64,000 bases of DNA from Candidatus Pyrohabitans jungbluthii (GCA_002010065.2 MTMD02000006.1:1-64000), one strand, 5' to 3'; positions 43,585 through 63,227 are shown, numbered from the stretch's first letter. Translations and numbers: made by a program. The notes: generated by a model from the letters alone, not told the origin.

Positions 43585-43791
43585 ATGCTATATGACCTGT
43601 ATGAGATCATTCTGGAGAATCCGGGCATAACGAGGAAGGAGATACTCAAGGAAGTTGACCTGCATCCGACGAACGTATCAAAGTACATCTCGCGCCTTGT
43701 GAAGAAAGGCAAAGTTGTTAGAGTCAGGGAGCGGGTGCCAGGAAACGTCACGCGCTACTATCCAGTTGAGATAGCTGGAAAGAGGAGATAA
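43585..43791 (+). CDS. MarR-like wHTH protein
   Basis: ENPGITRKEIL...VSKYISRLVKKGKV. Confidence 0.8.
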   Translation: MLYDLYEIILENPGITRKEILKEVDLHPTNVSKYISRLVKKGKVVRVRERVPGNVTRYYPVEIAGKRR

Positions 43792-45466: not shown

Positions 45467-45613
45467 ATGCCGAGTCAGCTTGAAATTGAGACCGTGCTGA
45501 AGATCATCAAGCTCAGAATTGCAGAGGGCATGGGATACAGGAGTATTGCAAGAAAGGTCGGGGTGGATTGGAAAACAGTGCGAAAGTACGTGAAGTTATA
45601 TGAAAAATTATAA
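45467..45613 (+). CDS. Small HTH protein (48 aa)
   Basis: GGAGG RBS; EGMGYRSIARKVGVDWKTVRKYV. Confidence 0.75.
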   Translation: MPSQLEIETVLKIIKLRIAEGMGYRSIARKVGVDWKTVRKYVKLYEKL

Positions 45614-48301: not shown

Positions 48302-48318
48302 CTGACTTTCCTTTTTAA
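48302..48318 (+). promoter_or_regulatory. Viral late promoter motif copy 1 (terS)
   Basis: CTGACTTTCCTTTTTAA, 32 nt from TATA start to ATG. Confidence 0.75.
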
Positions 48319-48343
48319 CCTAAACGAACCTTGACGAATCTAT

Positions 48344-48775
48344 ATGAACCTTTACAATCCTAAATGCAAGATCTGCCGTAGCGGGCATGCCGACAAAGTT
48401 AACCAGATGCTCATCGAAGGCAGACCCTACAGCGAGATCATCGCCAAGCTTGAGAAGCACATCCCGGGGCTCAGCAAGGCGAACATCACCAACCACAAGC
48501 GCCATTTCCCGGTAGTGCCCGAGGCAGTGAAAGAGTTTCAGAAGCAACTTGAGGAGGGGAAGCGCAAGGTCATTGACGACCTCGAGTTCCTTGAGAAGGT
48601 CAAGGCCAAAGCGGATGCTCTGCTTGACATCACCAGCGACCCGAGCGACCTTCAGAAGATAACCGCAGCCGCTGTCCAGGCAATGAAGCTCAAGTACGAG
48701 ATTTCCGGCGACGTCAACAACCCTGTGAAGGAGCTCCTGGAGGTCCTCTATGCTGAGGACGAAGAAGCTGGCTAA
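48344..48775 (+). CDS. Terminase small subunit (probable)
   Basis: CKIC...HKRH Zn-HTH N-terminus, helical; immediately upstream of TerL. Confidence 0.7.
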   Translation: MNLYNPKCKICRSGHADKVNQMLIEGRPYSEIIAKLEKHIPGLSKANITNHKRHFPVVPEAVKEFQKQLEEGKRKVIDDLEFLEKVKAKADALLDITSDPSDLQKITAAAVQAMKLKYEISGDVNNPVKELLEVLYAEDEEAG

Positions 48776-50084
48776 ACCTCTCAGGGATCCCGTCACCTTT
48801 GCAAAAAAGCTGCTTGGCTGGACACCTCACGAAGCGCAGGAGCAAATCCTCAGGGACAGGGCAAAGAACCTCACAGTCGCAGCAGGACGAAGATTCGGCA
48901 AGAGCGAGTGCATGGCAGTCTCCGCGATCCACTATGCCATAGCGCACCCTGGAAGCATTCAGTTCATCATCGCCCCAACCTACGACCAGGCACAGATTAT
49001 CTTTGACACCATCGTCAGGCTGCTTTCCAGGTCGCCGCTCATTCAGCTGGTGGATAAGGTGGTCTACACTCCCTTCCCGAAGCTCCGCTTTCTTACAGGC
49101 TCAATTATTCATGCCCGCTCCGCTGACAAGCCTCAGAACCTGCGAGGCCATAAGGCGCACCGCATAATCCTCGACGAAGCGGGCTACATTAAGGACGAGG
49201 CGGTCACCAACGTAATTGAGCCAATGCTCGCTGACTATGACGGAGACCTGATCAAGATTGGCACCCCTGCGGGAAGAAACCACTTCTATGACTCATTCAT
49301 CAGGGGGCTCGAGAGAAATGAGTACTACAGCAGCTACCAGTTCCCATCCTGGGTAAACCCGCACATCTCCAGGGAATACATAGAGCGCAAGAAGAAAGAA
49401 TACGGGGAGAACAGCATCCGCTTCCGCACCGAGTACATGGCGGAGTTCATAGACGACCAGAATGCTGTCTTCCCATGGCGCAGCATTCAGGCGTGCATCG
49501 AAGAAGATATAGAGCTCCTCGAGGGTAGGACCCATGCCAAGCAGCGCTTCGTCTTCGGCGTGGACGTGGCGAAGTACCTCGACTACACCGTAATCATCGG
49601 CATAGATATTGCCCAGGAGCCAGCGAAGCTCATATACTTTGACCGCTTCCAGCGCCTCCCCTGGGGAGAGATAGCCAGGAGAATCGAGGACATCCATGCA
49701 AGATTCTCGCCCCAGGCAATAGTTGTGGACAGCACTGGCGCCGGCGACCCCTTGCTGGAGATGGTCCAGCACATAGCACGAGGTATAACCATCACGGGTG
49801 GCACCGCAATAACTCAGCAGGGAAACATCACCAAGGTGCCAAAGACAATCCTGGTGGAGAGGTTAGCGGCTGCAATAGACAATCGCAAGGTCATCTTCCC
49901 CAACATCCCCGAGCTGATCAACGAGCTCAAGTACTTCGAGTACGTCCGCACGAGCTCGGGTAGCCTGAAAATGGAAGCTCACGAAGGCATGCACGACGAC
50001 TGCGTCATGGCCCTAGCTCTTGCTGTATTTGGAGCATTCCACGAGCCATCGCTTCCAGACATCGACGAATGGCCCTTCTTCTGA
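48750..50084 (+). CDS. Terminase large subunit
   Basis: Walker A AGRRFGKS, Walker B IILDEAG, IGTP, RNase H GVDVAKYLDYT and HDDCVMALAL. Confidence 0.95.
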   Translation: MLRTKKLAKPLRDPVTFAKKLLGWTPHEAQEQILRDRAKNLTVAAGRRFGKSECMAVSAIHYAIAHPGSIQFIIAPTYDQAQIIFDTIVRLLSRSPLIQLVDKVVYTPFPKLRFLTGSIIHARSADKPQNLRGHKAHRIILDEAGYIKDEAVTNVIEPMLADYDGDLIKIGTPAGRNHFYDSFIRGLERNEYYSSYQFPSWVNPHISREYIERKKKEYGENSIRFRTEYMAEFIDDQNAVFPWRSIQACIEEDIELLEGRTHAKQRFVFGVDVAKYLDYTVIIGIDIAQEPAKLIYFDRFQRLPWGEIARRIEDIHARFSPQAIVVDSTGAGDPLLEMVQHIARGITITGGTAITQQGNITKVPKTILVERLAAAIDNRKVIFPNIPELINELKYFEYVRTSSGSLKMEAHEGMHDDCVMALALAVFGAFHEPSLPDIDEWPFF

Positions 50085-50097
50085 CTTTGCTTTTTAT
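50081..50097 (+). promoter_or_regulatory. Viral late promoter motif copy 2 (portal)
   Basis: CTGACTTTGCTTTTTAT overlapping the TerL stop. Confidence 0.7.
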
Positions 50098-50131
50098 GCC
50101 TTTCCCGCAGAGGGAACTCTGGTGATGTTTC

Positions 50132-51523
50132 ATGAGCATCTTTGACCTGCTGAAGCCGAAATCTTCGAGAATGGACCTGGCTCTCGCGGAGCTTCTGAAA
50201 GGGGTTGCAAAGGCTGCGGATGATAAAATTTATAATCCCGACTTTGAGCCAGAGGGCGGCTGGGATAAGTGGTGCGCCTGGGCTGCGAAGCAGGGCAAAA
50301 TAGCGAGGATGATTAGAAGCTTAGCTAAGAATGCAATGGCTTTCGACTTCTCTGGCGATGACGACAAGGCGTTGGAATTGGTGCAGAAGATGCGCCGGCG
50401 CACCCACCTTGATCTAATTCTCGTGCTCGCCTTCAAGGACTGGCTTGAATATGGACGCTGCTTCCTGGAAGTGGTGTGGGAGAAGAAGCGCATCGGGAAC
50501 AATGTTGTAGAGGACATCATCAAAATCAAGCGCGTTAACCCGATGACAGTCCGCGTTTTCAGAGACAACGAGGACGATGTGCGTGAGCTCCGGGACTTCC
50601 TGAAGCGTCACTTCCCGAATGTGGACAGGAGCAACATCAAAGAGGGCAGCGGTGACAACATCATAGGCTTCGTGCAGCACTTCAAGAGGGCTGAGGAGGG
50701 CAAGGCGGTATTCTTCAAGCCTGAGGAGCTTATCTTCATCCCGCGCTATCCCGACTACGACGCCCCCGACGGTGTCAGTCTGCTCAGGGAGAACTACGCC
50801 AATATCATGAACAAGCTCGGCACGGAGAAGTACCAGGCGATCATGCTCAAGCGCTTCGTGGACCACAAGCACAAGTTTAAAGTTCCTGAACGTTGGTGGC
50901 ATCGCATTGAGGAACTCCAGAGCAAAATCAAAAACATGTTGAAAGCGGGCGGTGACCTCTGGATCCCCGAGGGCATGGAGGTTGAAATACTCGAGCCGAA
51001 AGGCAATCCCCTAGCGACGATCAAAGCTCAGGAGCATATAGAGGACCAGGTAATCGCCGGCATGGGCTTCAGCGACAGCTTCACCGAGAGCAAGAGCAGC
51101 AACCGCTCTGTTGGTGAGGTGCAGCTCCAGTTCTTTGAACGCGATATTAGACCAGAGCGCTACATCTTCAAGGTCGTCATCGAGGACAGGATCATAATCC
51201 CCTATGTCAGGAAGAAGCTCGGACCCAAAGCGAAGCCACCGGAGATGGTATTCGAAGACCTCACGCCACGCGATGAGGTGCGCTGGGCTGCGGTGATGGC
51301 TTCCTACCTGCCCTACATGACCAAGTCGCAGATCAAGCGCCTCTTCGACGAGCTCGGCTACCCAGTGCCAAAAGAGGAGGAAAAAGAGTTCAGCGCAAAG
51401 GTGGACCTCGCAACTCAGAAGGGCGTGCCAAAGCCCGTGCTGACCGGAAGCGTTGACGTCAGAGAAGAGTTCGCGGAAGAAATCCATCGCCTCCGGAAAG
51501 AGCTCCTGGAGGTCTTCGACTGA
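50132..51523 (+). CDS. Portal protein
   Basis: Position after TerL; YGRCFLEVV, PDGVSLL, IPEGMEVEIL motifs; 463 aa. Confidence 0.8.
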   Translation: MSIFDLLKPKSSRMDLALAELLKGVAKAADDKIYNPDFEPEGGWDKWCAWAAKQGKIARMIRSLAKNAMAFDFSGDDDKALELVQKMRRRTHLDLILVLAFKDWLEYGRCFLEVVWEKKRIGNNVVEDIIKIKRVNPMTVRVFRDNEDDVRELRDFLKRHFPNVDRSNIKEGSGDNIIGFVQHFKRAEEGKAVFFKPEELIFIPRYPDYDAPDGVSLLRENYANIMNKLGTEKYQAIMLKRFVDHKHKFKVPERWWHRIEELQSKIKNMLKAGGDLWIPEGMEVEILEPKGNPLATIKAQEHIEDQVIAGMGFSDSFTESKSSNRSVGEVQLQFFERDIRPERYIFKVVIEDRIIIPYVRKKLGPKAKPPEMVFEDLTPRDEVRWAAVMASYLPYMTKSQIKRLFDELGYPVPKEEEKEFSAKVDLATQKGVPKPVLTGSVDVREEFAEEIHRLRKELLEVFD

Positions 51524-52798
51524 ATGCAGCTCTACGATTTCCTCAGCAAGGATGAGGAAGATGCGATCCGTGCCATTGAGGAAGCGCTTCTCAGGAAGAC
51601 AGCAGAATCAAGGAAGCGCGCGGTTGAAAAGCTCGCCAAGCTTCTCACCGTCAGCTACTACATCGGCGCAGAGAGGGCGCTCAAAGAAGTTGGCGCTGAC
51701 GTGCGCATCACCAGCTTGGAGATCAGAGCGCTCGAGAAGCTCATAGAGCAGGATGTAGCGCCAGCAATAAAAGAGATGTACGAGTTCCTCGAGCGCGACA
51801 TTAAGAGCGTCATCGAGGAAGGCATCCGGGAGGGACTTACCTACGACGAAATCTCTGCAAGGCTAAAGGAAAGGCTAAGAACAACCTTCGGCGAGGAGAT
51901 TCACTTTGACAGGCGTGGAAAGCTAAGGGAAGAGATCTACATTGACCGCAGAGGCAGGCTCAGAGTCAGGCAGGTTAAAATCACCCGCACAAAGACGCTG
52001 AAGCTTGACGACTACGCCGATCTCCTCGCAAGGACCAACGTAAAGAAAGCCTACGCCCTGGGGCACCGCGAGGGCTACGTCGCCGCTGGCCTGCGAAAGT
52101 GGAGGTATCGCAGCGTAGCAGATGAACGCACCAGGCCGCACCACTTAGCTCTTCACGGCAGAGTATTTGAGGTTGGCACAGCAGAAGAAGAGCTCGCCCT
52201 CCGCGTAATGAGCGAGCCCAACTGTAGATGCAGGCCCTCGCCATACTTCGACGATCCCAAGCTTGACACGCCTCAAGAGGTTTTCGAGCAGGAGAAGAAA
52301 AAATGGGCCCAGGAATGGCAGAGAGAGAAGGGTCTCGATTCTCTTGGGAAGTATCTAGAACCATTCGACAGAAAAGGCTTAGCACCTCCTTCCTATGATG
52401 AGCAGCTTAACTACCTCATAGAGAGGTTTAAGAAAAGCGAAGACATGCGCACCCTCCTTTCCATTACCGGGGAAAGCCCGCAAGCAAAAGCTAAAGAGAT
52501 CCTTGGAATCTCTCTCAGGCACTCCACATTTCACGGTACCGCTTCATCATACAGGCACATGGTGCAGGATGGGAGGAGGTACTCCCTGTCAGATGTTTTC
52601 AGCATAAAAAAGAGCCCGGAATGGGTAAGACGCGATCCTGATACCGGAGAATTTTTATTGCATGGAAAATCTAAAATATATCAGCGCCCAGTTTATATAA
52701 TATTGACACCTGACAGAAAAATTAAAACTTCATTTGTCATTACAAAAAGGAAAGAAGTTGAGAAGCTTAAGATGAGATTTAAAGAGGAGTTGAAATGA
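51524..52798 (+). CDS. MuF/gp7 minor head protein with C-terminal toxin-like extension
   Basis: ARTN...WRYRSVADERTRPHHLALHG...EPNCRC MuF signature followed by about 190 further aa. Confidence 0.85.
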   Translation: MQLYDFLSKDEEDAIRAIEEALLRKTAESRKRAVEKLAKLLTVSYYIGAERALKEVGADVRITSLEIRALEKLIEQDVAPAIKEMYEFLERDIKSVIEEGIREGLTYDEISARLKERLRTTFGEEIHFDRRGKLREEIYIDRRGRLRVRQVKITRTKTLKLDDYADLLARTNVKKAYALGHREGYVAAGLRKWRYRSVADERTRPHHLALHGRVFEVGTAEEELALRVMSEPNCRCRPSPYFDDPKLDTPQEVFEQEKKKWAQEWQREKGLDSLGKYLEPFDRKGLAPPSYDEQLNYLIERFKKSEDMRTLLSITGESPQAKAKEILGISLRHSTFHGTASSYRHMVQDGRRYSLSDVFSIKKSPEWVRRDPDTGEFLLHGKSKIYQRPVYIILTPDRKIKTSFVITKRKEVEKLKMRFKEELK

Positions 52799-53067
52799 AG
52801 AGGCTCCGAATAAGCTACGGGGACGAGCTGCTCAAAAATCCAGAGAAACGACCTGCAGAAGGCAAAATTAGAGCAGCGTACGTAAACAACAGAACAGGGT
52901 TAGTCTTAGGGAGGGGCGACATTGAGGTGGAGATCATAAGGGAGAACGGCGCTGATTATATCACCCTTCCCGAGGAGGTATACAGAGAATTGAAACTCAC
53001 AGATTACGACATGGACTGGTGCTCTGTCTATCTGAGGGAGGATGGTATCTTAGTAGAGCTTTTCTAG
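52795..53067 (+). CDS. Small protein coupled to MuF; immunity candidate
   Basis: ATGA overlap with MuF stop; 90 aa. Confidence 0.55.
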   Translation: MKRLRISYGDELLKNPEKRPAEGKIRAAYVNNRTGLVLGRGDIEVEIIRENGADYITLPEEVYRELKLTDYDMDWCSVYLREDGILVELF

Positions 53068-53086
53068 GGTTGTAAGAGGGGGTAGT

Positions 53087-53479
53087 ATGGATATTAACAT
53101 AAAGGATTTGACTTCTCGTAATTTGGTCAATCATTTTGTAATTGGCTATTTCGCTCTTTATGTAATCCTTGGCGATCAGTTTATTAATTATAAATTATTG
53201 AAGCAGATAGTCTTGGCGATTGTTGCAAGCTACTTGTTGTTTATTCCCGCAAGATTAATCGTCCGCATTCGTTGGGGAAGATGGGAAGAAAATCAAGAGG
53301 CGTACACGTACTATCACTTTAGAATATTCGCGGTTCTTCTCTCTCTTACTATAATCAAATTTATTGATATCATGAGAGGACTATGGCCGTGGTACAAACT
53401 GATTTTAGTTTGGTTGTTATCTTTTACAGCAGACTGGTTAACATGGTGGCTTTACAGAAAAGATACCACCGACTGCTAA
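53087..53479 (+). CDS. AT-rich four-TM membrane protein (moron)
   Basis: Four hydrophobic segments; AT-rich relative to flanking structural genes. Confidence 0.65.
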   Translation: MDINIKDLTSRNLVNHFVIGYFALYVILGDQFINYKLLKQIVLAIVASYLLFIPARLIVRIRWGRWEENQEAYTYYHFRIFAVLLSLTIIKFIDIMRGLWPWYKLILVWLLSFTADWLTWWLYRKDTTDC

Positions 53480-53495
53480 ATTCTACAACCACTAT

Positions 53496-53512
53496 CTGAC
53501 TTTCCTTTTTAA
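53496..53512 (+). promoter_or_regulatory. Viral late promoter motif copy 3 (protease)
   Basis: CTGACTTTCCTTTTTAA, 31 nt TATA-to-ATG. Confidence 0.75.
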
Positions 53513-53536
53513 GCTACTTCTCCTCAGCCTTTATTC

Positions 53537-54895
53537 ATGAGCGACGAGGTTACAGTAGACTTCACTGTAAGGGTTGCCGATTGCTTGGGCTTTTGTGCAG
53601 AGAAAGGCGACTTCGTCCCAGTGGTTGACCTGAAGAACGAGGACACCTCGAGGGGACTAAAGCGCAGGATCATCGCTGTCACCGAAGGCACACACAACGG
53701 CATACAGTTCCGGGCTAATGAAATTGAGGCGATGGTCCGGCGTGCCATTGAGGTGAAAGAGCAGGAGAATAGGAAGTACTTCAAGGTGCCTCTTGTTCTG
53801 GACCACAGCGATAGCTTCCTGGACAAAGTCGGAGCCACCTACAACCTCGAGTTCGGCAAGGACCCTGAGAAGGGGCTGCAGGCGGCAATAGCAGACGTGG
53901 AGTTCTGGAACACCACGCCCATGCTCAGAGAGGTTGCAGAGCGCGTGAAGCTAGACCCTGAGAACACCTTCTTCTCCGTCAGGGTGAGGGGCAGAATAGA
54001 GCAGGACGCAGAAGGGGAGTACCTTGCTGACATGACCCTGGTGCACATCGCCGTGGTAAACGAGCCCGCTGATCCCAATGCCAGGCTGATCTCCAATTCC
54101 AGAGGTGCCGATATTTCCCGGGAAATATTCGACTTTGGCGTGGTGCCGAGCAACCCGCCAAACTACCGCAAGGCGAGCGAGGACACACCCTGGGAAAAGC
54201 CTCGCCTTGAGGACTTCACCAGCAAGCGTTGGGATGAGCTGAGCGATGCGGAGAAGCGCAGAATAGCCCAGCACTTCGCTTGGGCTCCGAAGATGCCGCC
54301 CAACGCATTCACAGACCTCAAGTTGCCGCATCACCGCCCTAGCGACGGCGCCGTGGTGTGGAACGGTGTTCGCGCAGCAATGGCAGCACTCATGGGCGCC
54401 CGTGGTGGCGTTGACATTCCCGCGGCAGATAAGCGCAAGGTGTACAACCATCTCGCAGCTCACTACAGAGAATTCGAAAAAGAGCCTCCAGAGGCAAACT
54501 TCGCCAAATCTGACTTTGCTTTAAATACAGAAGGCTCGGAACTCAACAACAAAGGAGGTCTAAGCATGGAAGAAATAGAGAAAATCAAGACAGACCTCAA
54601 GAAAGAGTACGAGCAGAAGCTCGAGGAGGTCAAGCAGGAGTTCGCAGCGAAGATCAAGAAAATCGAAGAGCTGACCGAGCTCCGCGCGGAGATCATCGCG
54701 ATTTACCCTGAGGTTGACAGGGATTTCCTGAAGTCGCTCAACAGGGAGCAGCTGGAGAAGTACAAGGCGGACCTCAAGAAGCGCATGGTGGAAACCCAGA
54801 GCACCGAGAAGAGCAGGGACAACGCAGCCAAAGCCGAGGACCCGTTTGAGCTTGCCGAGAAGTACTTCGGCCCGGTTGAAGTGGGGGTGAGCTAA
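53537..54895 (+). CDS. Prohead maturation protease fused to accessory domain and scaffold
   Basis: LVLDH, FFSV, HIAVVNEPAD protease motifs; LKLPHH...GGVDIP...HLAAHY domain; C-terminal coiled coil. Confidence 0.8.
   Translation: MSDEVTVDFTVRVADCLGFCAEKGDFVPVVDLKNEDTSRGLKRRIIAVTEGTHNGIQFRANEIEAMVRRAIEVKEQENRKYFKVPLVLDHSDSFLDKVGATYNLEFGKDPEKGLQAAIADVEFWNTTPMLREVAERVKLDPENTFFSVRVRGRIEQDAEGEYLADMTLVHIAVVNEPADPNARLISNSRGADISREIFDFGVVPSNPPNYRKASEDTPWEKPRLEDFTSKRWDELSDAEKRRIAQHFAWAPKMPPNAFTDLKLPHHRPSDGAVVWNGVRAAMAALMGARGGVDIPAADKRKVYNHLAAHYREFEKEPPEANFAKSDFALNTEGSELNNKGGLSMEEIEKIKTDLKKEYEQKLEEVKQEFAAKIKKIEELTELRAEIIAIYPEVDRDFLKSLNREQLEKYKADLKKRMVETQSTEKSRDNAAKAEDPFELAEKYFGPVEVGVS
54566..54895 (+). 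CDS. Nested in-frame scaffold protein
   Basis: Internal GGAGGT RBS + ATG in frame; own late-promoter motif at 54510-54526. Confidence 0.65.
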   Translation: MEEIEKIKTDLKKEYEQKLEEVKQEFAAKIKKIEELTELRAEIIAIYPEVDRDFLKSLNREQLEKYKADLKKRMVETQSTEKSRDNAAKAEDPFELAEKYFGPVEVGVS

Positions 54896-54896
54896 G

Positions 54897-55367
54897 ATGG
54901 TGGAGACTGCAGCTTCACCTGTAAGGGGGTACCTCCCTGAAGGTATCCTGAGCGCGAAGGTGGATACCACGCAGACCAAGGACGCCGACGGCTACTACTA
55001 CAAGGCTGGGGATCTCGTGGAGATCGTTGCCGACGAAACCGTGGGCAAGGCAACCACCTCTGGTAAGGCGATAGGCGTGCTCGTTTCGAGCATCCACGAG
55101 AGCTCTGCACCCGAAGGGCTTGACTCCAGGCACCGCGTTTCCGTGCTCACGAAGTTCAGGGCTATCGTTGAGTTCACCGCGGAGGGTGCGATCAACGCTG
55201 GAGACGCCGTTACCACGAGCACAACCAACCCAGGCAGAGTGAAGGCGCTGCCCCCAGAGACTATCGACGAAGGCGGCACCGCAACGCACACCATAGACTA
55301 CCGCGACCCCATCGGCATCTGCTGGAAGGGCGGAGCCGATGGTAGCAAGGTGCTCGTGCTGATATGA
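54897..55367 (+). CDS. Head decoration/cement protein
   Basis: KAGDLV, KAIGV, AINAGDAV, PIGI repeats typical of capsid cement proteins; precedes MCP. Confidence 0.65.
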   Translation: MVETAASPVRGYLPEGILSAKVDTTQTKDADGYYYKAGDLVEIVADETVGKATTSGKAIGVLVSSIHESSAPEGLDSRHRVSVLTKFRAIVEFTAEGAINAGDAVTTSTTNPGRVKALPPETIDEGGTATHTIDYRDPIGICWKGGADGSKVLVLI

Positions 55368-55377
55368 GGTGGTGGAG

Positions 55378-56256
55378 ATGACGACCGCAGCTTTCACACA
55401 GAAGGATTTAGCATACCAGGACAGCCCCGCCCTTAAGCCTGAAGTCATAAGGGCGAGGGTCAAGCAGGTCTACGAAAAGACGCTGATAGGCAGGCAGCTT
55501 CTGAGTGGACCCGAGCGCATCGAGGGTGATTCCGTCTCCTGGATAGAAGAGGGTGACATCGTAGGCAACGTGGACTGGATCAGCGAGCTGGGCGGTTTCC
55601 CAAAGCTGGACTTCAAGTATGGCAAGAAGGCCAAGCCTATCCGGCCCTACGGTGCGTATTTCGACGTTACGCTGATGGAGCGCAGATTCTCCCGCGTCCA
55701 GACTGTGGGCAGAAAGATCAATCGCAGCGTTTACAAGATGCGCCGCTTTGAGGACGATCTGATCTTCAACGCCATGCTCAATGCAACCGGTATAAACACA
55801 TTCGACGGTACCAACTGGACTGACACCACGGCAGGGGACCCCATCGCAGACCTCGAGCATGCCAAGACGCTCATCTACGACGCTACGGATGGGGGTGAGG
55901 CTACCGACGTCATCATGAGCCCCATAATGTACGAGCGCCTCACCAAGTTCGACGTGGTACGCAACAACAACTACCTCCAGGCCCAGGTGGTCAAGACCGG
56001 TGTAATCCCTGGCCTCGCAGGGCTCAACATAATCAAGGATAAGGCCGTTGATCCCAACGACGACGGCGTGGTGCTCGTGATCCGCAGAAAGGACATAGGC
56101 TTTATGGCTGAGAGCATACCCCTGACTACGGTCAATGTCTCCGGTGAGAACCTCGGCAACCCGATGATAGACAACCGCTACTTCAACTTCGCCATGGCAG
56201 AGCCAGTCATCGACAGCCCAGAGTACATCTGCAAGATCACCGGCTTGAAGGCGTAA
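55378..56256 (+). CDS. Major capsid protein (HK97 fold)
   Basis: Size and position; ELGGFP, EDDLIF, DPIADL, VIMSP, GLAGLNII motifs. Confidence 0.82.
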   Translation: MTTAAFTQKDLAYQDSPALKPEVIRARVKQVYEKTLIGRQLLSGPERIEGDSVSWIEEGDIVGNVDWISELGGFPKLDFKYGKKAKPIRPYGAYFDVTLMERRFSRVQTVGRKINRSVYKMRRFEDDLIFNAMLNATGINTFDGTNWTDTTAGDPIADLEHAKTLIYDATDGGEATDVIMSPIMYERLTKFDVVRNNNYLQAQVVKTGVIPGLAGLNIIKDKAVDPNDDGVVLVIRRKDIGFMAESIPLTTVNVSGENLGNPMIDNRYFNFAMAEPVIDSPEYICKITGLKA

Positions 56257-56303
56257 GCGCCTCTCTTTCCATTTTCCGGGAAATATGTTTTGAGGTGATG
56301 TAG

Positions 56304-56591
56304 ATGCCAAAGAATGAACTGCTTGTGGAAATCAGAGCCGCACACTTCGAGAGCAAGCACCTGCGAGGCAAGAGGGGCGACAGGGGCAAGATACCAGCGG
56401 ACGAGAAGCTTCAGACGCCTGCGGAGCGCGATGCATTGAAGAACGGCAACCTCGTCGTTATCGACCTCGAGCCGGTGGAGAGCAAGCCAGCACCTGAGGA
56501 GAAGCCCAAGAAAAAGGGAAAGGGCAAGAAGGCTGAGGAAAGCAAGCCAAAGGGACCAGAGAAAAGCGAACCTGAAGAAAACGCCGAGTAG
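56304..56591 (+). CDS. Small virion-associated protein with K/E/P-rich tail
   Basis: Follows MCP; GAGGTGA RBS. Confidence 0.6.
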   Translation: MPKNELLVEIRAAHFESKHLRGKRGDRGKIPADEKLQTPAERDALKNGNLVVIDLEPVESKPAPEEKPKKKGKGKKAEESKPKGPEKSEPEENAE

Positions 56592-56600
56592 GGAGGGGAA

Positions 56601-56921
56601 ATGGAAGAGTCCCTCCTCATGAAGTACCTCGACAGCAAGTTCGAGGACCAGCAGAGGCAGATTTCATCCATCTGCAAGAAGCTAGACAAGCTAATCGAAG
56701 ATAACAGAAATGACCACGTGCAGCTTTACAGCCGCATTGGGGTGCTCGAGCGCTCTATCACTGAGCTCAGTCAGACAACCACAGCAATCGAAGATCATGA
56801 ACAGAGGATCCGCGCTCTGGAAACATTCAAGAATAGAATAATCGGGGCTCTCGTGGTAATTCCCGCAGGCGTTAGCACAATGGTGGTGAAGCTTAAAGAC
56901 CTGTTCTCTGGGGGGAACTGA
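56601..56921 (+). CDS. Coiled-coil + C-terminal TM protein (XhlA-like)
   Basis: DHEQRIRALE followed by a hydrophobic segment. Confidence 0.55.
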   Translation: MEESLLMKYLDSKFEDQQRQISSICKKLDKLIEDNRNDHVQLYSRIGVLERSITELSQTTTAIEDHEQRIRALETFKNRIIGALVVIPAGVSTMVVKLKDLFSGGN

Positions 56922-56922
56922 C

Positions 56923-57291
56923 TTGGCAGCCACTATCGACGACGTGAGGGCACAGATTGGCGACACCGACCCAGACAACTACATCTTCGGCGACCCTGAG
57001 ATCCAGAGCGCTCTGGACGAAGCTCAAGCAATCATAGAGGCGGAAGGGGGAAATGTTAGCAGTATACTGGGCAAGAGGGCGCAGAAGCTGCTCGCCGCCG
57101 CCTTCCTGGTTGACATGAAGACCGGGAACATAAAAGAGCGCAACGTCAAAACAATCCGCGAGGGCGATGCCTCGCTGGACTTTGAAGACCTCTCTGCGAA
57201 GGCTAAGGAGTGGCGCGCCGAAGCTGAGAGGCTGATTGACAAGCTCAGACCTCTGCCCTTTGGTGTGACCAACGATTTCTTCAGTGAGTGA
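56923..57291 (+). CDS. Head-tail connector (adaptor)
   Basis: TIDDVRAQIGDTD...FGDPEI...IREGDASL pattern. Confidence 0.7.
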   Translation: MAATIDDVRAQIGDTDPDNYIFGDPEIQSALDEAQAIIEAEGGNVSSILGKRAQKLLAAAFLVDMKTGNIKERNVKTIREGDASLDFEDLSAKAKEWRAEAERLIDKLRPLPFGVTNDFFSE

Positions 57292-57653
57292 AAATGTTCT
57301 CGGCTTTAGACTGGCCCTATAAAATTGAGCTGGTAAGAATCACAGAGGGCTACACCGACCAGAGCACTGGTGACTATATCCCTCCCCAGGAGAGCGTGGT
57401 GGAGATAAAGGGACACATCAGCGATGTTACGGTCAAAGACCTGCAGCGTGCACCGGAAGGGCTCTATGAGCTGGGCGACAGAAGGCTCTACGTAGCTAAG
57501 AGCTACGGCATCGCCGAGGGAGATATAATCAAAATCACAGAGGCGGACGGCTCAGTGAGCGAGTGGAAAGTTGTGCGCAGGGAGAGAAGCTACGGCTTGC
57601 TTGAGAGGTACGCAGCCTCGAGAGAGGCGTTTCTGCTCAGGCGGAGACAATGA
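57288..57653 (+). CDS. Head closure protein
   Basis: GYTDQSTGDY, LQRAPEG, GDII...W beta-rich; position. Confidence 0.65.
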   Translation: MKMFSALDWPYKIELVRITEGYTDQSTGDYIPPQESVVEIKGHISDVTVKDLQRAPEGLYELGDRRLYVAKSYGIAEGDIIKITEADGSVSEWKVVRRERSYGLLERYAASREAFLLRRRQ

Positions 57654-58159
57654 GCAAAGTAGAAGACAAGAACAACATCCCCAAGCTTGTGGCTGATTTT
57701 GAGAAGATCCTCGATCGCGTCGCAGCGAAGATTGCGATGTACCTCGAGCAGAAGATCCTTGACAAGATGGAGTCTGGCGACGCCTCCTGGCCGGAGCTGC
57801 ATCCCTTCACCGTCTCAAGGAAAGGCAGCACAAAGGCGTGGATCGACACCGGAGAGCTGAGGAATCAGATCACGCACCGCATCACGGGCAAAAGCATGAG
57901 CAGGACCATAAAGGTCGGCATCTTCCAGAGCAAGAAGGCTTTCATAGCGCTAGTCCTCGAGGAAGGGGCAACGATAAGAGTGAGTGAGAGGATGCGGAAG
58001 TTCCTCCATGCCCAGGGGCTACACCTCAAGCAAAGTACGTCAGAACTCCACATCCCACCGAGACCTCTTTTCACGCTGGTTTTCGACATGGAGGAAGAGA
58101 AAATTCTTAAAATAGCGCGGCAGGCTCTCGAGGAAGAGCTGAATCGCTACACCCTCTGA
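57650..58159 (+). CDS. Tail completion/neck protein (Mu gpG-like)
   Basis: WPELHPFT..RK, IDTGELRNQI, EEG, IPPRP motifs. Confidence 0.75.
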   Translation: MSKVEDKNNIPKLVADFEKILDRVAAKIAMYLEQKILDKMESGDASWPELHPFTVSRKGSTKAWIDTGELRNQITHRITGKSMSRTIKVGIFQSKKAFIALVLEEGATIRVSERMRKFLHAQGLHLKQSTSELHIPPRPLFTLVFDMEEEKILKIARQALEEELNRYTL

Positions 58160-58172
58160 CTTTGCTTTTTAT
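58156..58172 (+). promoter_or_regulatory. Viral late promoter motif copy 5
   Basis: CTGACTTTGCTTTTTAT, 30 nt TATA-to-ATG (58196). Confidence 0.7.
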
Positions 58173-58195
58173 GTTCTGTGCTGTGAGTGCTTATC

Positions 58196-58738
58196 ATGCT
58201 CCCTTCGAGTCTAAAGAAAGAGATCTTCAAAAGCCTGCCCAAGCAGGTAACAATAGGCAACGACACCCTCAGCATATACGTTGACTACGCTGACAGAGTG
58301 AACGTCTCAGAGAAGCTTCGCAGCTATCCCGTGGTGCTCACTTTGCACTACTTCGGTGACAGGAGGAGCGATGTGGAGAGCCCCCTCAATGACATCCTGG
58401 AGATAACCAGCGACGGCGTGGATGTGATCTACACCAAGGGGGAGAGGGAGCGGATCACGCTGCGCATCAACATCCACGCAAAGGACCACAGGGGCGCAGA
58501 GTTCCACCACAGGAGCGATGTTGTAGACGCAGTGGTTGACGAGCTGCTTCTGTGGTACCTCAAGCTAAACATCCCCGGTATAGCCACGCGGGGGAGAAGC
58601 GAAGTTGCTGCACTTGACTTCCTCGCAGGCGACGGAATAGCGAGGCGGAGGATAGACTTCTACCTCGCCTATACGCTGAGCTACCAGGAGACGGTCACCA
58701 CCATTGAGACCATTAACTACGAGGTCCAGCAGGGCTGA
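58196..58738 (+). CDS. Tail terminator-like protein
   Basis: Position before sheath; alpha/beta with RRRIDFYL. Confidence 0.55.
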   Translation: MLPSSLKKEIFKSLPKQVTIGNDTLSIYVDYADRVNVSEKLRSYPVVLTLHYFGDRRSDVESPLNDILEITSDGVDVIYTKGERERITLRINIHAKDHRGAEFHHRSDVVDAVVDELLLWYLKLNIPGIATRGRSEVAALDFLAGDGIARRRIDFYLAYTLSYQETVTTIETINYEVQQG

Positions 58739-58742
58739 TTTT

Positions 58743-58759
58743 CTGACTTTCCTTTTTAA
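58743..58759 (+). promoter_or_regulatory. Viral late promoter motif copy 6 (sheath)
   Basis: CTGACTTTCCTTTTTAA. Confidence 0.75.
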
Positions 58760-58809
58760 ACCTCTGCATTCAGCTTAAGCTTAAAAGCCGAAACTGGAGG
58801 AAGTAAGAG

Positions 58810-59889
58810 ATGCCGACGTCGGATAGCGCAATCCAAATCAACGTAGCTGATGCAACTTCGGCTTCTAAGGCCGAAACCTACGGCGAGGTAATTGTGATCG
58901 GCGAGGACAGCGACAATCTCGCGGACTTCAACACTGTATACACCTACTATAGCCAGAGCGAGGTTGAGCAGAAGTTCGGCGCTACTTCACCGATATCGCA
59001 GGCTACATCGAAGATTTTCGCCCAGGGCGTGGACCACGTGAAGGTGGTTAACGCCCTAAAGGACGACGGAGCAGGCGGCTCCGTTGCGGATTATAACACG
59101 GTGCTCAACTCCCTGGTGAGCGAGCAAGTTGACTACGACATAATAGTCCCGACGATAGACGCCAGCGATGCCAACATGCCAACGCTTGTGAGCCACGCAG
59201 GCAGCGAGAAGAAGGTGCTCATCATACCGGACATAGGGGATAAAGCTACCGTGGAAGCCAACATCGGGGCTCTCACGGCAAACGAGTACTGCTTTGCTAT
59301 TGCTCACGATGATGCAACGCTTGCACCAGGAGAACTTGCGGGCGCTGCCGCTGGCGTGCTCGGCGTGCTCCGCCCTTGGGTGCCTCCGGAGTGGCATGAG
59401 GTGCAGGGCATAAGTGCTGCGAGCTACGCCCCCAGCGATGTCGATGCCCTCGAGGGCAGCAACATCAACACCGTCATAACTGTGGCGCAGCGCAGCGTGA
59501 TAAGCGGAGCCAAGAGCCTCACGGGCAGCTTTATAGACATCCCGCGCACTAAGATCTACCTCGCCAAGGAGATCAAAAACGCCCTGGTGAACCTGAAGAT
59601 CCGCCTCGCCAACATGGGGCGCAAGATACCTTACTCGCCGGCGGGGCTGGACATGATCAAGGCGACAATCGAGGGGGTCTGCAGAGCTGCTCAGACTCTG
59701 GGCGCGCTGAGAGCTGATTACGTGGACGGGAAAGGCAACCTCGTGAAGGGCTTCCTTGTGAGCGTGCCAAGCTATGACTCAATACCAGACAGCGACAAGA
59801 GCAACCGCGTGCTCAACAACGTTTCCGTGACTGCATACCTGAGCGGCAGCATCAGCAAGATCACGCTTGACCTGGTCATAACGCTATGA
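58810..59889 (+). CDS. Contractile tail sheath protein (DUF3383-like)
   Basis: FIDI...KIPYSPAG...SVP...DKSNRVL...YLSGSI C-terminal sheath signature. Confidence 0.82.
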   Translation: MPTSDSAIQINVADATSASKAETYGEVIVIGEDSDNLADFNTVYTYYSQSEVEQKFGATSPISQATSKIFAQGVDHVKVVNALKDDGAGGSVADYNTVLNSLVSEQVDYDIIVPTIDASDANMPTLVSHAGSEKKVLIIPDIGDKATVEANIGALTANEYCFAIAHDDATLAPGELAGAAAGVLGVLRPWVPPEWHEVQGISAASYAPSDVDALEGSNINTVITVAQRSVISGAKSLTGSFIDIPRTKIYLAKEIKNALVNLKIRLANMGRKIPYSPAGLDMIKATIEGVCRAAQTLGALRADYVDGKGNLVKGFLVSVPSYDSIPDSDKSNRVLNNVSVTAYLSGSISKITLDLVITL

Positions 59890-59899
59890 GGTGATTGAA

Positions 59900-60304
59900 G
59901 TGGCGCTTGTGGAGTATAGCGTTAAGGATGTAACCGTCTTTATCGACGGCGTTGAAGTGGAAGACATCGCAGAACTCACCATCACGCCCAAAGGAGAGGA
60001 CAACGTAACGCCAGTGAAGGACTGGAGCAATAGAACAATAGGCTGGAACGTGAAGGATGACACCGACGCAGAGGGCACCATCGGCTTAAAGGCGCAGAGC
60101 AAGACCAACCAGCTGCTCATGGACATCGTCAAAGCCAAGCGCGGCGTGCAGGTCGTTGTGAAGAGCAACAACAAAGAGGCAACGGGCTTCTCGAAGATGA
60201 GCATCGACGACTGCCACTTCTCCTGGCCGGAGTTCAAGCCCGAGGCAGAGGAGCCCACGTGGAGCTGGAAGTTCATAGGCACAAACTTCGATATCGAGTA
60301 CTGA
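59900..60304 (+). CDS. Tail tube protein
   Basis: YSVKDVTVFIDG, GTIGLKAQS, WKF; follows sheath. Confidence 0.75.
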   Translation: MALVEYSVKDVTVFIDGVEVEDIAELTITPKGEDNVTPVKDWSNRTIGWNVKDDTDAEGTIGLKAQSKTNQLLMDIVKAKRGVQVVVKSNNKEATGFSKMSIDDCHFSWPEFKPEAEEPTWSWKFIGTNFDIEY

Positions 60305-60314
60305 GGTGGTGTAG

Positions 60315-60626
60315 ATGGCAAAGAAGGGCATTGATTATTCTAAGATATATGTGGCAGACGATCCTATAACAATCGAAGTGAACGGAGTGGAATTCAAGCT
60401 AAAGGAACTGAGTTCCGGAGAGTACTATGATATCCTTGAATCCTGCAGCCGTGGAAGTGATTTTGACAGGAAAAAGTACAGCCATAAGCTCGTCCAAGCT
60501 GCTGTGATAGAGCCAGATATTAACGCAGCAAAATTAAAACCTGGTGTGTTAGCAGTATTGGTCAACGAAGTCGAAAATTCTCTGGGTCTCTCTGAGGAGG
60601 CATTGCGTCACATTAAAAAAAAGTAG
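60315..60626 (+). CDS. Tail assembly chaperone (gpG-like)
   Basis: FKLKELS...AVIEP...LKPG; ends in slippery A AAA AAG before TAG. Confidence 0.75.
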   Translation: MAKKGIDYSKIYVADDPITIEVNGVEFKLKELSSGEYYDILESCSRGSDFDRKKYSHKLVQAAVIEPDINAAKLKPGVLAVLVNEVENSLGLSEEALRHIKKK

Positions 60627-60805
60627 AATCTAAGTTTCATCTTTACTTTTTAGCTGAACAATTCGGCGACTTAGAATTGGAAAGGGTCAATAAGCTGCCC
60701 ATTCACCGTGTTTTAGAGTGGCTTGAATATTTCAAGCAGAAGCATGAAAAAGTTAAGGCAATTACTATTGATAGCTCAGAGGGACACACGTTCAGGTTTT
60801 CTTAG
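60623..60805 (+). CDS. -1 frameshift extension of tail chaperone (gpT-like)
   Basis: Open -1 frame with no ATG: VESKFHLYFLAEQFGDLELERVNKLPIHRVLEWLEYFKQKHEK... Confidence 0.75.
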   Translation, partial: VESKFHLYFLAEQFGDLELERVNKLPIHRVLEWLEYFKQKHEKVKAITIDSSEGHTFRFS

Positions 60806-61348
60806 CTATTCATTATTGTAAAATTGTGCTATTTTTTGTAAATGATATTCTGAAGGTTGTTTACATTCTGATTTGTCTTTCCAATTTTGAGAAATTTCAC
60901 GCCTACACACATCTTCCAAAATCAATTGAATTGCCTCGAATGCTGTCATACCTTCAGACATTATTATACGATCATCTTTCTTTAGGGTCCCATATTCCCC
61001 TCCTCTAGGTTCCCACTTGTAGGGTATGGTAGCCCCATTACCACACACTAAAACCATTGAAATACTTTCAAACATTTTTTCAGGTATATATTTTCTTGAT
61101 CGAGGCGATCTCCCCACTGGATGGAAGACTATTTCGAGTTTCGTATTGGTAAAAAATTTATTGACTATTTTATTTGATTCATAATCAAAAAACTCAAAGT
61201 TCTCAAGTACTATCTTTTTCTCGTCGTAAAAAAAACCTCTAATGGATAAATTCATATAGACTTCTTTCCATCGTGTTTCAATTTCGTTCCTTAATTTTTC
61301 AACTATCTTATCAATCTCTTTAATAACAAAACTTAAGTGTCTACTCAT
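60806..61348 (-). CDS. AT-rich moron protein, unknown function
   Basis: 180-aa ORF overlapping the upstream moron gene. Confidence 0.65.
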   Translation of the reverse strand: MSRHLSFVIKEIDKIVEKLRNEIETRWKEVYMNLSIRGFFYDEKKIVLENFEFFDYESNKIVNKFFTNTKLEIVFHPVGRSPRSRKYIPEKMFESISMVLVCGNGATIPYKWEPRGGEYGTLKKDDRIIMSEGMTAFEAIQLILEDVCRREISQNWKDKSECKQPSEYHLQKIAQFYNNE

Positions 61349-62096
61349 TAAACCTCCCCAATTCTACAGAATAGAAATATTCTACTAGTAACCCTGGACT
61401 CACATTTCTGTTTCTTCTCCAACTTGTAATAATTTTATTCTTAAGTCTATCTGTATTTGTTGAGGTAATCCTGGTTGGGGAGATAGGTAGATACCAACCA
61501 TTATTTATAGCAGTTTCTATAACTTTAGGAGCCTCCTCATAAAGCCAATCTATTGTTTTTATTACATAGTTTTTATCTCTTCTATGAATAAAGAACCTAT
61601 ATATCTTCTCCATAGCAAATACCCAATCAAAAATTTCGTCATATAATCCAGCAATTATTATCGACTTAAGTGTTGGGATTTTAGGCTTTATTTCTAATTC
61701 TGGAAAGAATCTTATAATGGAATCATCAATATATAATAAATGGGCAAATTTTATAACATACTCAAATCCATAAATATGAGCATAATCTTTGAATAAGTTT
61801 TCGTAATGCAATTTTGTAATATGGTCATACATGTTGTATTTAGATCCCATGGTCTTAACTGTGATCTCAATGTAATCAGAATATTTTATAATAAAAGGTT
61901 CCATCTCTTTTAACATTTTGTCTACTTTGTTTAAAGTCTCTTCTTCGAATATTTCAAGTTCATTGTATTTAAAGAATGGCAGTGCTTTCCATTCTCTAAT
62001 AAATTCCTCTTTACTGGGTCTGCCAAAAGATGGTCCAGAAGGGTGATACACACCAATTTTTGGATGATAAACAGAAACAACATTAACGGACGCCAT
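61341..62096 (-). CDS. AT-rich moron protein, unknown function
   Basis: 251-aa ORF with GGAGG RBS. Confidence 0.7.
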   Translation of the reverse strand: MASVNVVSVYHPKIGVYHPSGPSFGRPSKEEFIREWKALPFFKYNELEIFEEETLNKVDKMLKEMEPFIIKYSDYIEITVKTMGSKYNMYDHITKLHYENLFKDYAHIYGFEYVIKFAHLLYIDDSIIRFFPELEIKPKIPTLKSIIIAGLYDEIFDWVFAMEKIYRFFIHRRDKNYVIKTIDWLYEEAPKVIETAINNGWYLPISPTRITSTNTDRLKNKIITSWRRNRNVSPGLLVEYFYSVELGRFNE

Positions 62097-62343
62097 GTAT
62101 TAGCCTCCAACCTTACATCATTAATTACCTCACCTTTTTGCGCCCACCCAACTATATCATATACCTATATCTCTATCATCTATCATAACTTATACCCATA
62201 TCACCGTATATGTTTATTGTATATTGTATATACCTATACTTTCGTATAGTTACACCAACTCTTTGATATATAAAATTTATTGTTCGGTTGTCTGCAAAGC
62301 CTTGGCAATCACGTTGATGTTGCAGTCCTGGGCATCGGGGTTA

Positions 62344-62967
62344 TTACTGATATGCTTTATCCACATCTTCCTCTAGCTCTTTCAGTCTCTTTTTTAATCT
62401 CTCATATTCCTCCTTATCAATACTCCTAGCTTTTTTTAATTCTTGTATTTCTTGATATATCTCATCCAATTTCGCCTCAATATTCGCCAACCTGTCTGTG
62501 CGATAACTTGTATAATAAATTGGTAGTTTCTCATATTGTAGCTGTAATTTTTCTATTTTGGGTAAGACTTTGCTTAAATTCTGATGGACTTCTGCGAATT
62601 GCTGAGCGATTTTCAAAGTTTTTAGAACAGGAATTTGAAGCTCTCTATATAGAGATATTGTTTTAGAGATTGACGAAATAGCTGCCATAGTATTCGCCAA
62701 ACTTTTTTCTAATCTATCAAGCTCAGGGTATTTTTCATGATATTCACTCAAAATTTGTTTTGCTTTTTCTTTTATTGAAATGTCATCTGATTTTGAGAGT
62801 TCCTTTGCTATGAAGTAAGCTTCAATCGGGAGTGTATCTAAATGTCGCTTTATCAAGTCTAAGCATTCCAAATGTGTATCCTCATCTTTTGCTTTCTCCT
62901 TGATTTCTTCCATAATTTTTTGAGCATCTTTTGAAGAGACCAACTTTTCTGACATATTTTTCACCAC
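62344..62967 (-). CDS. Helical/coiled-coil moron protein
   Basis: HEAT-like LSKSDDISIKEKAKQIL segment and C-terminal coiled coil. Confidence 0.65.
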   Translation of the reverse strand: MVKNMSEKLVSSKDAQKIMEEIKEKAKDEDTHLECLDLIKRHLDTLPIEAYFIAKELSKSDDISIKEKAKQILSEYHEKYPELDRLEKSLANTMAAISSISKTISLYRELQIPVLKTLKIAQQFAEVHQNLSKVLPKIEKLQLQYEKLPIYYTSYRTDRLANIEAKLDEIYQEIQELKKARSIDKEEYERLKKRLKELEEDVDKAYQ

Positions 62968-63188
62968 ACTTTAAGTATAAGAGCCACAGTTAGAATGATT
63001 ATAAAAACTACACTTCCCGCAATCCCTGAACTTTTGCTAATTTTAAATAAACCCGCAAAATATACTCCAATTAATCCGTATGCCACCGCCCACAGTATTA
63101 GAGTATTTGATGTAAGTGCATCCACTATTGTGATTATTACCAACCATAGCAGAATAAAACCAACTGTGTATCCAGTAGCTACCCCCAT
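62961..63188 (-). CDS. Small three-TM moron protein
   Basis: 75 aa, hydrophobic; overlaps next gene. Confidence 0.6.
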   Translation of the reverse strand: MGVATGYTVGFILLWLVIITIVDALTSNTLILWAVAYGLIGVYFAGLFKISKSSGIAGSVVFIIILTVALILKVW

Positions 63189-63227
63189 GACTTTATTTTA
63201 TAAATAGGGCCTATAAAAAAGTTTTCT

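Follow-up and report, generated by a model that had tools for sequence, protein, structure and literature searches.

Introduction

Little is known about late-gene timing in archaeal tailed viruses, and the closest described parallels to the element treated here come from other archaeal viruses and from cellular activators. In the archaeal tailed virus HF2, intergenic repeats of 58 and 29 bp are confined to the virus, conserved across the genus, and active as promoters by reporter assay and primer extension (Russ, Pfeiffer and Dyall-Smith 2021, PMC8707807). The promoters of SIRV1 and SIRV2 carry a virus-specific GTC beside the TATA box (Kessler et al. 2004, cited in PMC5569661), and TFB-RF1 of Pyrococcus and Ptr2 of Methanocaldococcus are activators that recruit transcription factor B (TFB) and the TATA-binding protein (TBP) (PMC5569661). 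Our subject is a short cassette, a box fused to a TATA box, that recurs ahead of the head and tail genes of a tailed provirus in the archaeon Candidatus Pyrohabitans jungbluthii. The window, that is, the whole stretch of DNA analysed, comprises 64,000 nt (C6:1-64000; contig MTMD02000006.1) and is part of a 15-contig, 1.99 Mb genome.

As far as the accounts in PMC8707807 and PMC5569661 go, the cassette resembles each of these systems in part. Like the HF2 (Haloferacalesvirus) repeats, it belongs to an archaeal tailed virus, is a virus-only repeat with a TATA box between genes, and keeps its sequence and place among relatives; one HF2 repeat class is likewise assigned to morphogenesis genes. Like the SIRV element, it is a short virus-specific sequence directly at the TATA box of most promoters and is presumed to be a cis-regulatory mark, but the SIRV GTC lies downstream of TATA whereas the GAC found here lies upstream. 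With the promoters served by TFB-RF1 and Ptr2 it shares a non-consensus TFB recognition element (BRE) next to a good TATA box and a conserved site at the upstream edge that could accommodate a recruitment factor. Unlike in those promoters, the site overlaps the BRE place instead of preceding it, and the likeness is one of mechanism only.

The cassette also differs from its precedents. It is compact (16 nt), its box occupies the BRE place, it is present in many copies (9-13 per genome) that mostly serve leaderless genes, one copy is intragenic, and a sister form has its half-site across the TATA box. In HF2, as reported, the BRE place is normal, the repeats are few (7 and 2), and the late module is a single 35 kb transcript; promoter activity there is experimental, whereas the present cassette is known from sequence alone. 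The HF2 9-mer CTTTAAGTC is absent from the window in a comparison limited to the strings quoted in PMC8707807. An earlier, sequence-only reading of the window had called the element an undescribed late-gene switch. As a statement about the kind of element this was too strong, with the HF2 cassettes (PMC8707807) and the SIRV1/2 GTC (PMC5569661) preceding it; for the motif itself, the literature searches listed no paper that describes it in archaeal viruses. The cassette alone does not establish a new mechanism.

A virus-restricted cassette ahead of the morphogenesis genes

The cassette is restricted to the virus, is repeated ahead of genes and includes a TATA box. Its spacing and surroundings make it very probably the late promoter of this virus clade. 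We moderately favor a fuller reading in which it is the late morphogenesis-gene promoter of a tailed archaeal provirus and its box would be the address for a dedicated regulator; taken alone, the proposition that the box is the target of such a regulator has, from the sequence comparisons below, roughly even chances.

The provirus spans about 38.8 kb to C6:75 kb and ends with an integrase gene (C6:73764-74972, minus strand) beside a tRNA-His gene. It holds nine copies in total, each on the strand that encodes the head/tail module. Seven lie in the window, and two variant copies lie beyond it on the same contig. Distances are from the start of the TATA box to the ATG of the open reading frame (ORF) that follows, and SD denotes a Shine-Dalgarno sequence.

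48302..48317, plus strand: copy 1, CTGACTTTCCTTTTTA; TerS-like ORF, ATG 48344, 32 nt; no SD
50081..50096, plus strand: copy 2, CTGACTTTGCTTTTTA; Mu-type portal, ATG 50132, 41 nt; GGTGA as SD
53496..53511, plus strand: copy 3, CTGACTTTCCTTTTTA; protease/scaffold, ATG 53537, 31 nt; no SD
54510..54525, plus strand: copy 4, CTGACTTTGCTTTAAA; inside ORF 53537-54895, nested in-frame ATG 54566, 46 nt; GGAGG as SD
58156..58171, plus strand: copy 5, CTGACTTTGCTTTTTA; unnamed ORF, ATG 58196, 30 nt; no SD
58743..58758, plus strand: copy 6, CTGACTTTCCTTTTTA; sheath-like DUF3383, ATG 58810, 57 nt; GGAGG as SD
63187..63202, plus strand: copy 7, degenerate, ATGACTTTATTTTATA; 582-aa ORF, ATG 63228, 31 nt; no SD
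C6:64996, plus strand: copy 8, CTGACTTCGATTTATAA; Dit-like ORF C6:65039, ATG at 33 nt
C6:66968, plus strand: copy 9, CTGACTTTGGTTTATAAA; gp25-like (sheath initiator) ORF C6:67010, ATG at 32 nt

All seven window sites listed in the sequence-only reading are present on the plus strand at the coordinates given there. The pattern CTGACTTTSC (CTGACTTTSCTTTWWA) has six matches in the window against 0.48 expected, a number that none of 100 shuffles reaches; these matches, which start at 48302, 50081, 53496, 54510, 58156 and 58743, are all on the plus strand and run directly into TTTWWA. The 8-mer CTGACTTT alone gives one extra window match, at 350, with no TATA box after it, and the degenerate site at 63187 matches the looser pattern TGACTTTNNTTTWWA. 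TTTWWA is present in 9/9 provirus copies.

The restriction to the provirus holds for the whole genome. The 12-mer core TGACTTTSCTTT and the sequence GACTTTSCTTTWWA each occur six times in the 1.99 Mb, in both cases 6/6 inside the provirus, and CTGACTTTSC occurs 12 times, six of them in the provirus. A weight matrix was built from 25 copies of related viruses only, hence independently of the window, and run over both strands of the genome: the top seven sites are provirus copies on the plus strand, and eight of the top 13 are provirus copies. Pattern and matrix scans found zero copies in the early region (38.8-48.2 kb) and in host DNA, in line with what the sequence-only reading had noted for the host half and the early genes. 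Of the 38 genomes from the phylum that were compared, two contain the 16-mer, namely this one (six copies) and G009 (two copies).

Spacing and Shine-Dalgarno sequences point to a promoter

Host genes served to calibrate the geometry of the copies: for each of 2,674 ORFs with 100 codons or more, the spacing between any TTTWWAWW octamer and the ATG was recorded. Distances of 29, 30, 31 and 32 nt occur in 19, 36, 27 and 14 ORFs, while other distances mostly occur in 1-10. This peak is the host's own leaderless-mRNA signature, and six of the nine provirus copies, with 30-33 nt between TATA start and ATG, match it. The earlier statement that four of the seven window copies lie at 30-32 nt is exact (32, 41, 31, 46, 30, 57 and 31 nt in order of position). 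A tally over 31 late-module starts adds a second regularity: an SD is present at 0/6 genes behind copies at 30-33 nt, at 3/3 behind copies at 41, 46 and 57 nt, and at 17/22 genes without a copy. A transcription start about 30 nt past the TATA start predicts just this dichotomy, which a terminator or an RNA signal would not. Thus, the dichotomy and the spacing together argue for a promoter, mostly for leaderless mRNAs, and from the ATG spacing and the missing SD we infer that transcription starts at the cassettes. A search of sequencing runs turned up no RNA run that contains the stretch. In the leaderless cases the base before the ATG is C or T, and a pyrimidine before the start is typical of archaeal initiator sites. 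The idea of a virus-restricted promoter of morphogenesis genes with leaderless geometry is therefore supported in silico by the matrix ranking, the host spacing peak and the SD dichotomy.

The same observations bear on another account, in which the T-rich element would be no promoter at all but only an RNA-processing signal, or an oligo-T terminator or insulator that acts where genes end. A run of five T (T5) is present in 5/9 copies, and the stop codon of the upstream gene falls inside 3/8 copies, eight of the nine having been examined; in copy 2 the TGA within the box doubles as the TerL stop codon, and in copy 5 it is the stop codon of ORF 57650-58159. Furthermore, copy 4, which lies inside a gene where termination would do harm, has TTTAAA as its TATA box and no T5, and this is so in every virus compared. 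A terminator, however, would fix neither the ATG at 29-33 nt (55/65 copies in the related viruses described below) nor the agreement with the host TATA-to-ATG peak, would not explain why the SD is missing at exactly the genes at 30-33 nt, and should not lack T5 in 4/9 copies. We consider this account very improbable. The T5 copies might still act as terminators in a secondary role, a side function at which the TTTAAA of the internal copy gives only a hint.

A pyrimidine-rich box in the place of the BRE

Set beside a core promoter, the cassettes have the expected TATA spacing and lack a purine-rich BRE upstream of TATA. Of 101 leaderless promoters of the host, 66 have A at -3, one has TTT at -5..-3, and none has GAC at -8..-6; in a second host tally (156 sites), the frequency of A is 0.62 at -3 and 0.46 at -4, and the upstream regions of host tRNA genes also show an A-rich stretch ahead of the TATA box. 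Among the viral copies, 9/9 have T at both -4 and -5 and 8/9 have T at -3, and positions -8..-6 read GAC. Set against the A-rich host positions, these bases indicate that a pyrimidine-rich box occupies the BRE place, as the sequence-only reading had held, and the provirus-versus-host scan proposed there, now run, finds that the motif is not common in host promoters. Natural promoters that keep the host TATA box and spacing but have no host BRE would offer a clean substrate for studying what the BRE contributes in archaea.

In the mechanism that we propose, each cassette begins with a 10-base box, C-T-G-A-C-T-T-T-N-C, in the place of the host's A-rich BRE. The TATA box TTTWWA(W) adjoins it directly, and some 22-24 variable bases, rich in pyrimidines, separate the TATA box from a pyrimidine-ATG. 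Host TBP and RNA polymerase would then start at the ATG or 1-2 nt before it and yield a leaderless mRNA; where the ATG is further away, a leader of 10-27 nt with an SD would result. Nine cassettes would divide the head/tail module into short units, and the cassette within the protease gene would give the nested scaffold protein a transcript of its own. The reader of the box would most likely be an activator or recruitment factor that makes up for the absent BRE in the manner of TFB-RF1 or Ptr2. Such a dedicated reader would keep the late promoters quiet in the lysogen and turn them on together.

The cassette in related viruses

Searching with the provirus TerL (444 aa) led to IMG/VR contigs at 52-53% identity, in which the same box stands before the equivalent genes. 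The record G061 (behind locus L014; 39 kb, TerL 52%) has 11 strict and 13 loose copies on one strand, 0 strict and one loose on the other, and none of the reversed-pattern control. Four other records have 2-6 strict copies each, plus variants such as CCGACTTT or CTGACCTT. Over 12 related records (264,541 bp), the loose pattern matches 65 times on the gene strand and once on the opposite strand, with one control match. When only ATGs heading an ORF of 40 codons or more are counted, the distance from TATA start to ATG is 29-33 nt in 55/65 copies and exactly 30 nt in 30. Relatives carry copies at the same sites, before the portal, protease, nested scaffold and tail genes, and the box is kept across viruses with 35-60% protein identity and 41-57% GC. 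The two free positions before GAC are themselves biased in the 65 copies, with C at 0.78 and T at 0.88.

These counts have to be read with their sampling in mind, and the sampling tells to some degree against a conserved signal: seven of the 12 records, as well as G009, were found by a motif pattern search and hold at least one copy by construction. Neither the strand bias nor the spacing in those records is by construction. G061 was found through TerL, and L315 and L321 through protein B (introduced below); they hold 13, 3 and 4 copies, respectively. Some of the 12 records may be fragments of one virus, and L321 and G065 share one metagenome.

The genome G009, of the same family, contains a remnant of the same provirus, a near-identical head module (G009:C2:41490-50400, loci L322 and L323) with 90-97% protein identity and a truncated portal gene. 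It has copies at the same two places and two further loose copies; the site of copy 3 (53496) is kept. More distant searches returned little. In a collection of cultured phages, the capsid protein gave two weak matches to Rhodococcus phage (one phage, two records) and the portal protein none; a TerL scan of genome contigs gave just four distant loci in bacterial metagenome-assembled genomes; and pattern scans of viral contigs gave, among the matches listed, mostly single chance matches. These comparisons place the element in a small clade of archaeal tailed viruses, all uncultured. As a compact, conserved late-promoter signature, the cassette could help to mark late genes, transcription units and leaderless starts when virus contigs from metagenomes are annotated.

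An internal copy and the nested scaffold

Copy 4 (54510) lies in frame within the protease/scaffold ORF. A promoter in this position has a parallel in HSV-1, where UL26.5 has its own promoter. In the codon alignment, the 18 nt TCTGACTTTGCTTTAAAT, six codons reading S-D-F-A-L-N, are identical in the window, G009, G061, G064 and L321, five viruses that are not five independent lineages, while the flanking codons vary at synonymous sites in the same five. G062 has the variant TCAGACTTTTCTTTAAAA at the internal site, with an in-frame ATG 31 nt on. The identity at synonymous sites suggests that the DNA itself is under selection and that the nested scaffold protein has a separate transcript. The concrete prediction is that an internal promoter of its own drives production of the scaffold protein.

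HFTV1 offers the nearest described arrangement: its gp17 and gp17.5 are a nested, in-frame protease/scaffold pair whose internal-start mechanism is stated there to be undetermined, and phage lambda C/Nu3 and HSV-1 UL26/UL26.5 are named as further pairs of this kind (10.64898/2026.09.13.751334). The likeness to HFTV1, as it is described in that source, is an in-frame start inside the prohead protease gene that yields a scaffold protein; the difference is that here the internal ATG has a full promoter copy ahead of it, at 46 nt (31 nt in relatives), so that a separate transcript is predicted.

A metagenome scan for the 18-mer of the internal copy returned 49 stretches, six of which encode the protease. 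Another, L366, has seven copies and no protease match in its stretch. The remaining 42 are single matches, mostly in AT-rich DNA, and were taken as chance.

Candidate readers of the box

The sequence-only reading had proposed a viral factor that replaces or redirects TFB, and had named small helix-turn-helix (HTH), winged-HTH (wHTH) and zinc-finger proteins as candidates. The first part is unsupported; no TFB or TBP homologue is found in the provirus or in five related records. The candidate proteins are the following.

43585..43791, plus strand: winged-HTH protein, 68 aa; Pfam HTH_24, 1.9e-9
45467..45613, plus strand: HTH protein, 48 aa; Pfam HTH_28, 4.2e-7
46889-47119, plus strand: protein A, Cys-rich, C-x6-C-x3-C-x5-C; shared with relatives
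47040-47375, plus strand: protein B, Cys-rich, C-x4-C...C-x3-C; shared with relatives

The two HTH candidates are real HTH proteins, but neither has a detectable homologue in the motif-bearing records (phmmer E < 0.05; one record rated 92% complete). For the wHTH protein a single weak match occurs, in the motif-less provirus of G036. Because small HTH proteins diverge fast, this negative does not exclude them. The region from 38.8 to 46.8 kb of the window has nothing in common with relatives at E < 1e-4.

Proteins A and B, a zinc-finger pair whose ORFs overlap by 80 nt and lie upstream of the late module in the window, are the only shared proteins with non-structural-looking sequence. They occur without exception in the motif-bearing records where the slot flanked by the homologues of 57288-57653 and 57650-58159 is covered; the carriers are G061, G062, G063, G064, L120, L315, L321, L347 and L364. 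The pair is thus conserved along with the motif, but this co-occurrence is confounded with the whole shared module, and A and B are therefore ranked only as the best available candidates. By sequence they are weak candidates for the reader of the box. A profile search with A and B yielded 73 representative clusters, and ten longer cluster members compared with Pfam showed no informative fusion, only one sub-threshold Ogr_Delta match outside the aligned part. Phage P2, too, encodes a small zinc protein within its late genes, the late activator Ogr. For B, AlphaFold gave a model with a mean pLDDT (predicted local distance difference test) of 76. Foldseek found nothing for this model in the PDB at E <= 0.001 (best 0.27), and a wide VIA-align comparison reached a best Z of 4.6, under the level deemed meaningful. 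The ESM Atlas yielded no more than leads (0.83-0.85), among them zf-FCS and RTR1/YdaE clusters.

A number of points weigh against a dedicated reader. No DNA-binding protein is common to all motif viruses outside the structural module. Proteins A and B have no Pfam or PHROG family and no fold assignment; in the window both are shortened, A being without its C-terminus and B without the N-terminal beta domain (first ~40 residues), which may reflect a deletion and a decayed locus in this provirus. Neither was found in the part of G009 that was searched, which keeps four copies of the motif. Furthermore, 35/101 host leaderless promoters are also without A at -3, so that a poor BRE need not silence a promoter. 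The HF2 repeats need no viral protein to be active, and their activity was not lowered by mutations in the BRE (PMC8707807); as reported, then, a dedicated factor is not a necessity. The HF2 authors leave the readers of their repeats unidentified and propose virus-encoded ones, naming CxxC zinc-finger proteins (PMC8707807).

Several of these points would be expected if the promoter had no dedicated factor, with host TBP and one of the two TFB paralogues using the cassette directly. The box CTGACTTT would then be a lineage-specific variant BRE or a flanking element that tunes strength, and late timing would come from genome copy number, an early-promoter repressor or read-through control. The host is an archaeon with one TBP gene (on contig C8) and two TFB genes (on contigs C15 and C2), many of its own leaderless promoters lack A at -3, and the comparison with relatives revealed no shared early regulator. 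In the HF2 work, the repeat promoters are active in virus-free cells, and mutations in the BRE or the alpha-motif were without effect (PMC8707807). What this account hardly explains is that CTGAC is nearly invariant across the range of protein identity and GC given above, when basal factors would need no box, and CTGAC is found in 0/101 host promoters. We regard direct use by host factors as rather unlikely and prefer a promoter whose box is read by a dedicated regulator.

Other small proteins of the provirus and its relatives were inspected along the way. A 66-aa protein (46034-46234) with a hydrophobic N-terminus and an acidic helix is common to G061, where it follows directly after B, and G036. 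It may be a small membrane protein and does not count as a DNA-binding candidate. G009 has an ArsR-like winged-helix ORF (48620-49234) in the slot where other relatives have A and B. The wHTH proteins in the head/tail slot of G009 and G036 resemble each other in a generic way only. Pfam searches with nine early ORFs of G062 and with 47934-48146 (minus strand) gave nothing useful.

A sister form with the half-site behind TATA

The provirus on contig C29 of G036 (51712-70955, loci L007 and L008; TerL 51%) has no box upstream of TATA. Its late genes are preceded instead by TTTTTAAAGTCT, with the ATG 31 nt past the TATA start, and its protease gene has TATA-AGTC at the place homologous to the internal copy. 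In the 2.4 Mb genome of G036, 6/9 matches of the TTTTTAAAGTCT type lie in the provirus; the reversed control gives seven matches. The sequence AAAGTC is the complement of GACTTT, and 4/65 upstream-type copies, including C6:66968, also have AAAGTC right behind TATA, forming an inverted repeat around it. A TATA box with GTC of the SIRV type, as that element is quoted in PMC5569661, is thus present in G036 and at C6:66968 and absent from the window (0 matches of TTTWWAWNGTC).

Another account takes the box for an operator. In the lysogen, a provirus repressor bound to CTGACTTT next to the TATA box would block TBP and TFB at each late promoter, much as F55 acts on the promoters of SSV1, and the box does overlap the BRE place, at which known archaeal and viral repressors act (PMC5569661, in the parts on these repressors). 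The element also lies within an integrated provirus whose late genes need to be silent. The box, however, consists of one 8-mer and shows none of the repeats that operators typically have, its inverted partner is confined to the four copies just mentioned, and the comparison with relatives revealed no conserved repressor candidate. Temperate viruses, moreover, usually repress their early promoters and not every late one. We hold the operator to be improbable.

The sister form suggests one more specific version of the dedicated-reader proposal, and a doubtful one: GACTTT could be a BRE surrogate that is read by a small viral zinc protein, namely the conserved protein B, perhaps with A, in place of TFB, with TBP clamped on TATA from either side. 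A clamp of this kind would explain the arrangement GACTTT-NN-TATA of most of the clade, the sister arrangement TATA-AAGTC, and the inverted repeats in the few copies with both halves. If true, the virus would possess a late switch acting on the archaeal pre-initiation complex, which it would rewire at the stage where TBP and TFB are recruited.

Gene modules of the provirus and other genomic features

Copies 1-7 stand among the following gene blocks.

48344..60626, plus strand: head and proximal tail module, served by copies 1-6
60806..63188, minus strand: low-GC, moron-like block of four ORFs (~37% GC; host ~51%), between the TAC-like gene and the 582-aa ORF

The first module contains TerS-like, TerL, Mu-type portal, MuF, protease/scaffold, cement-like, major capsid, connector, sheath-like and TAC-like (tail-chaperone-like) genes, among which TerL, MuF, the cement-like gene and the major capsid gene have no copy of their own. 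No family could be assigned to the four ORFs of the moron-like block, one of which has a weak transmembrane-domain match. The earlier suggestion that copies restart transcription after a moron agrees with the position of the copy at 63187, which resumes the plus-strand genes past this minus-strand block; the 582-aa ORF that it precedes (63228) is probably the tape measure gene.

Four DNA runs contain variants about 5% divergent from the window. In one of them, X5, a 10.4 kb contig matches the window from 48299 on (~5% differences) and is dissimilar before that point. Its homology thus begins at an early/late mosaic junction that coincides exactly with the first promoter copy.

In the early region, a 326-aa protein (41367-42347) has weak tandem winged-helix matches to TrmB, PadR, MarR, MCM_C and TFIIE_alpha, near or below the cut-off, and may be a replication or regulatory protein with multiple winged helices. 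The genome contains no mcrA. It does contain ten copies of a hairpin element, GTT[AG]CCCGGAA[GC]-loop-[GC]TTCCGG followed by TGACG[AG]AG, with examples outside the window at C2:248592 (minus), C8:191621 (minus), C15:105216 (plus) and C14:20330 (minus). The element looks like a structured RNA leader, possibly kink-turn-like, and several of its copies are followed immediately by a tRNA gene (for Ser, Lys, Thr, Arg or Leu).

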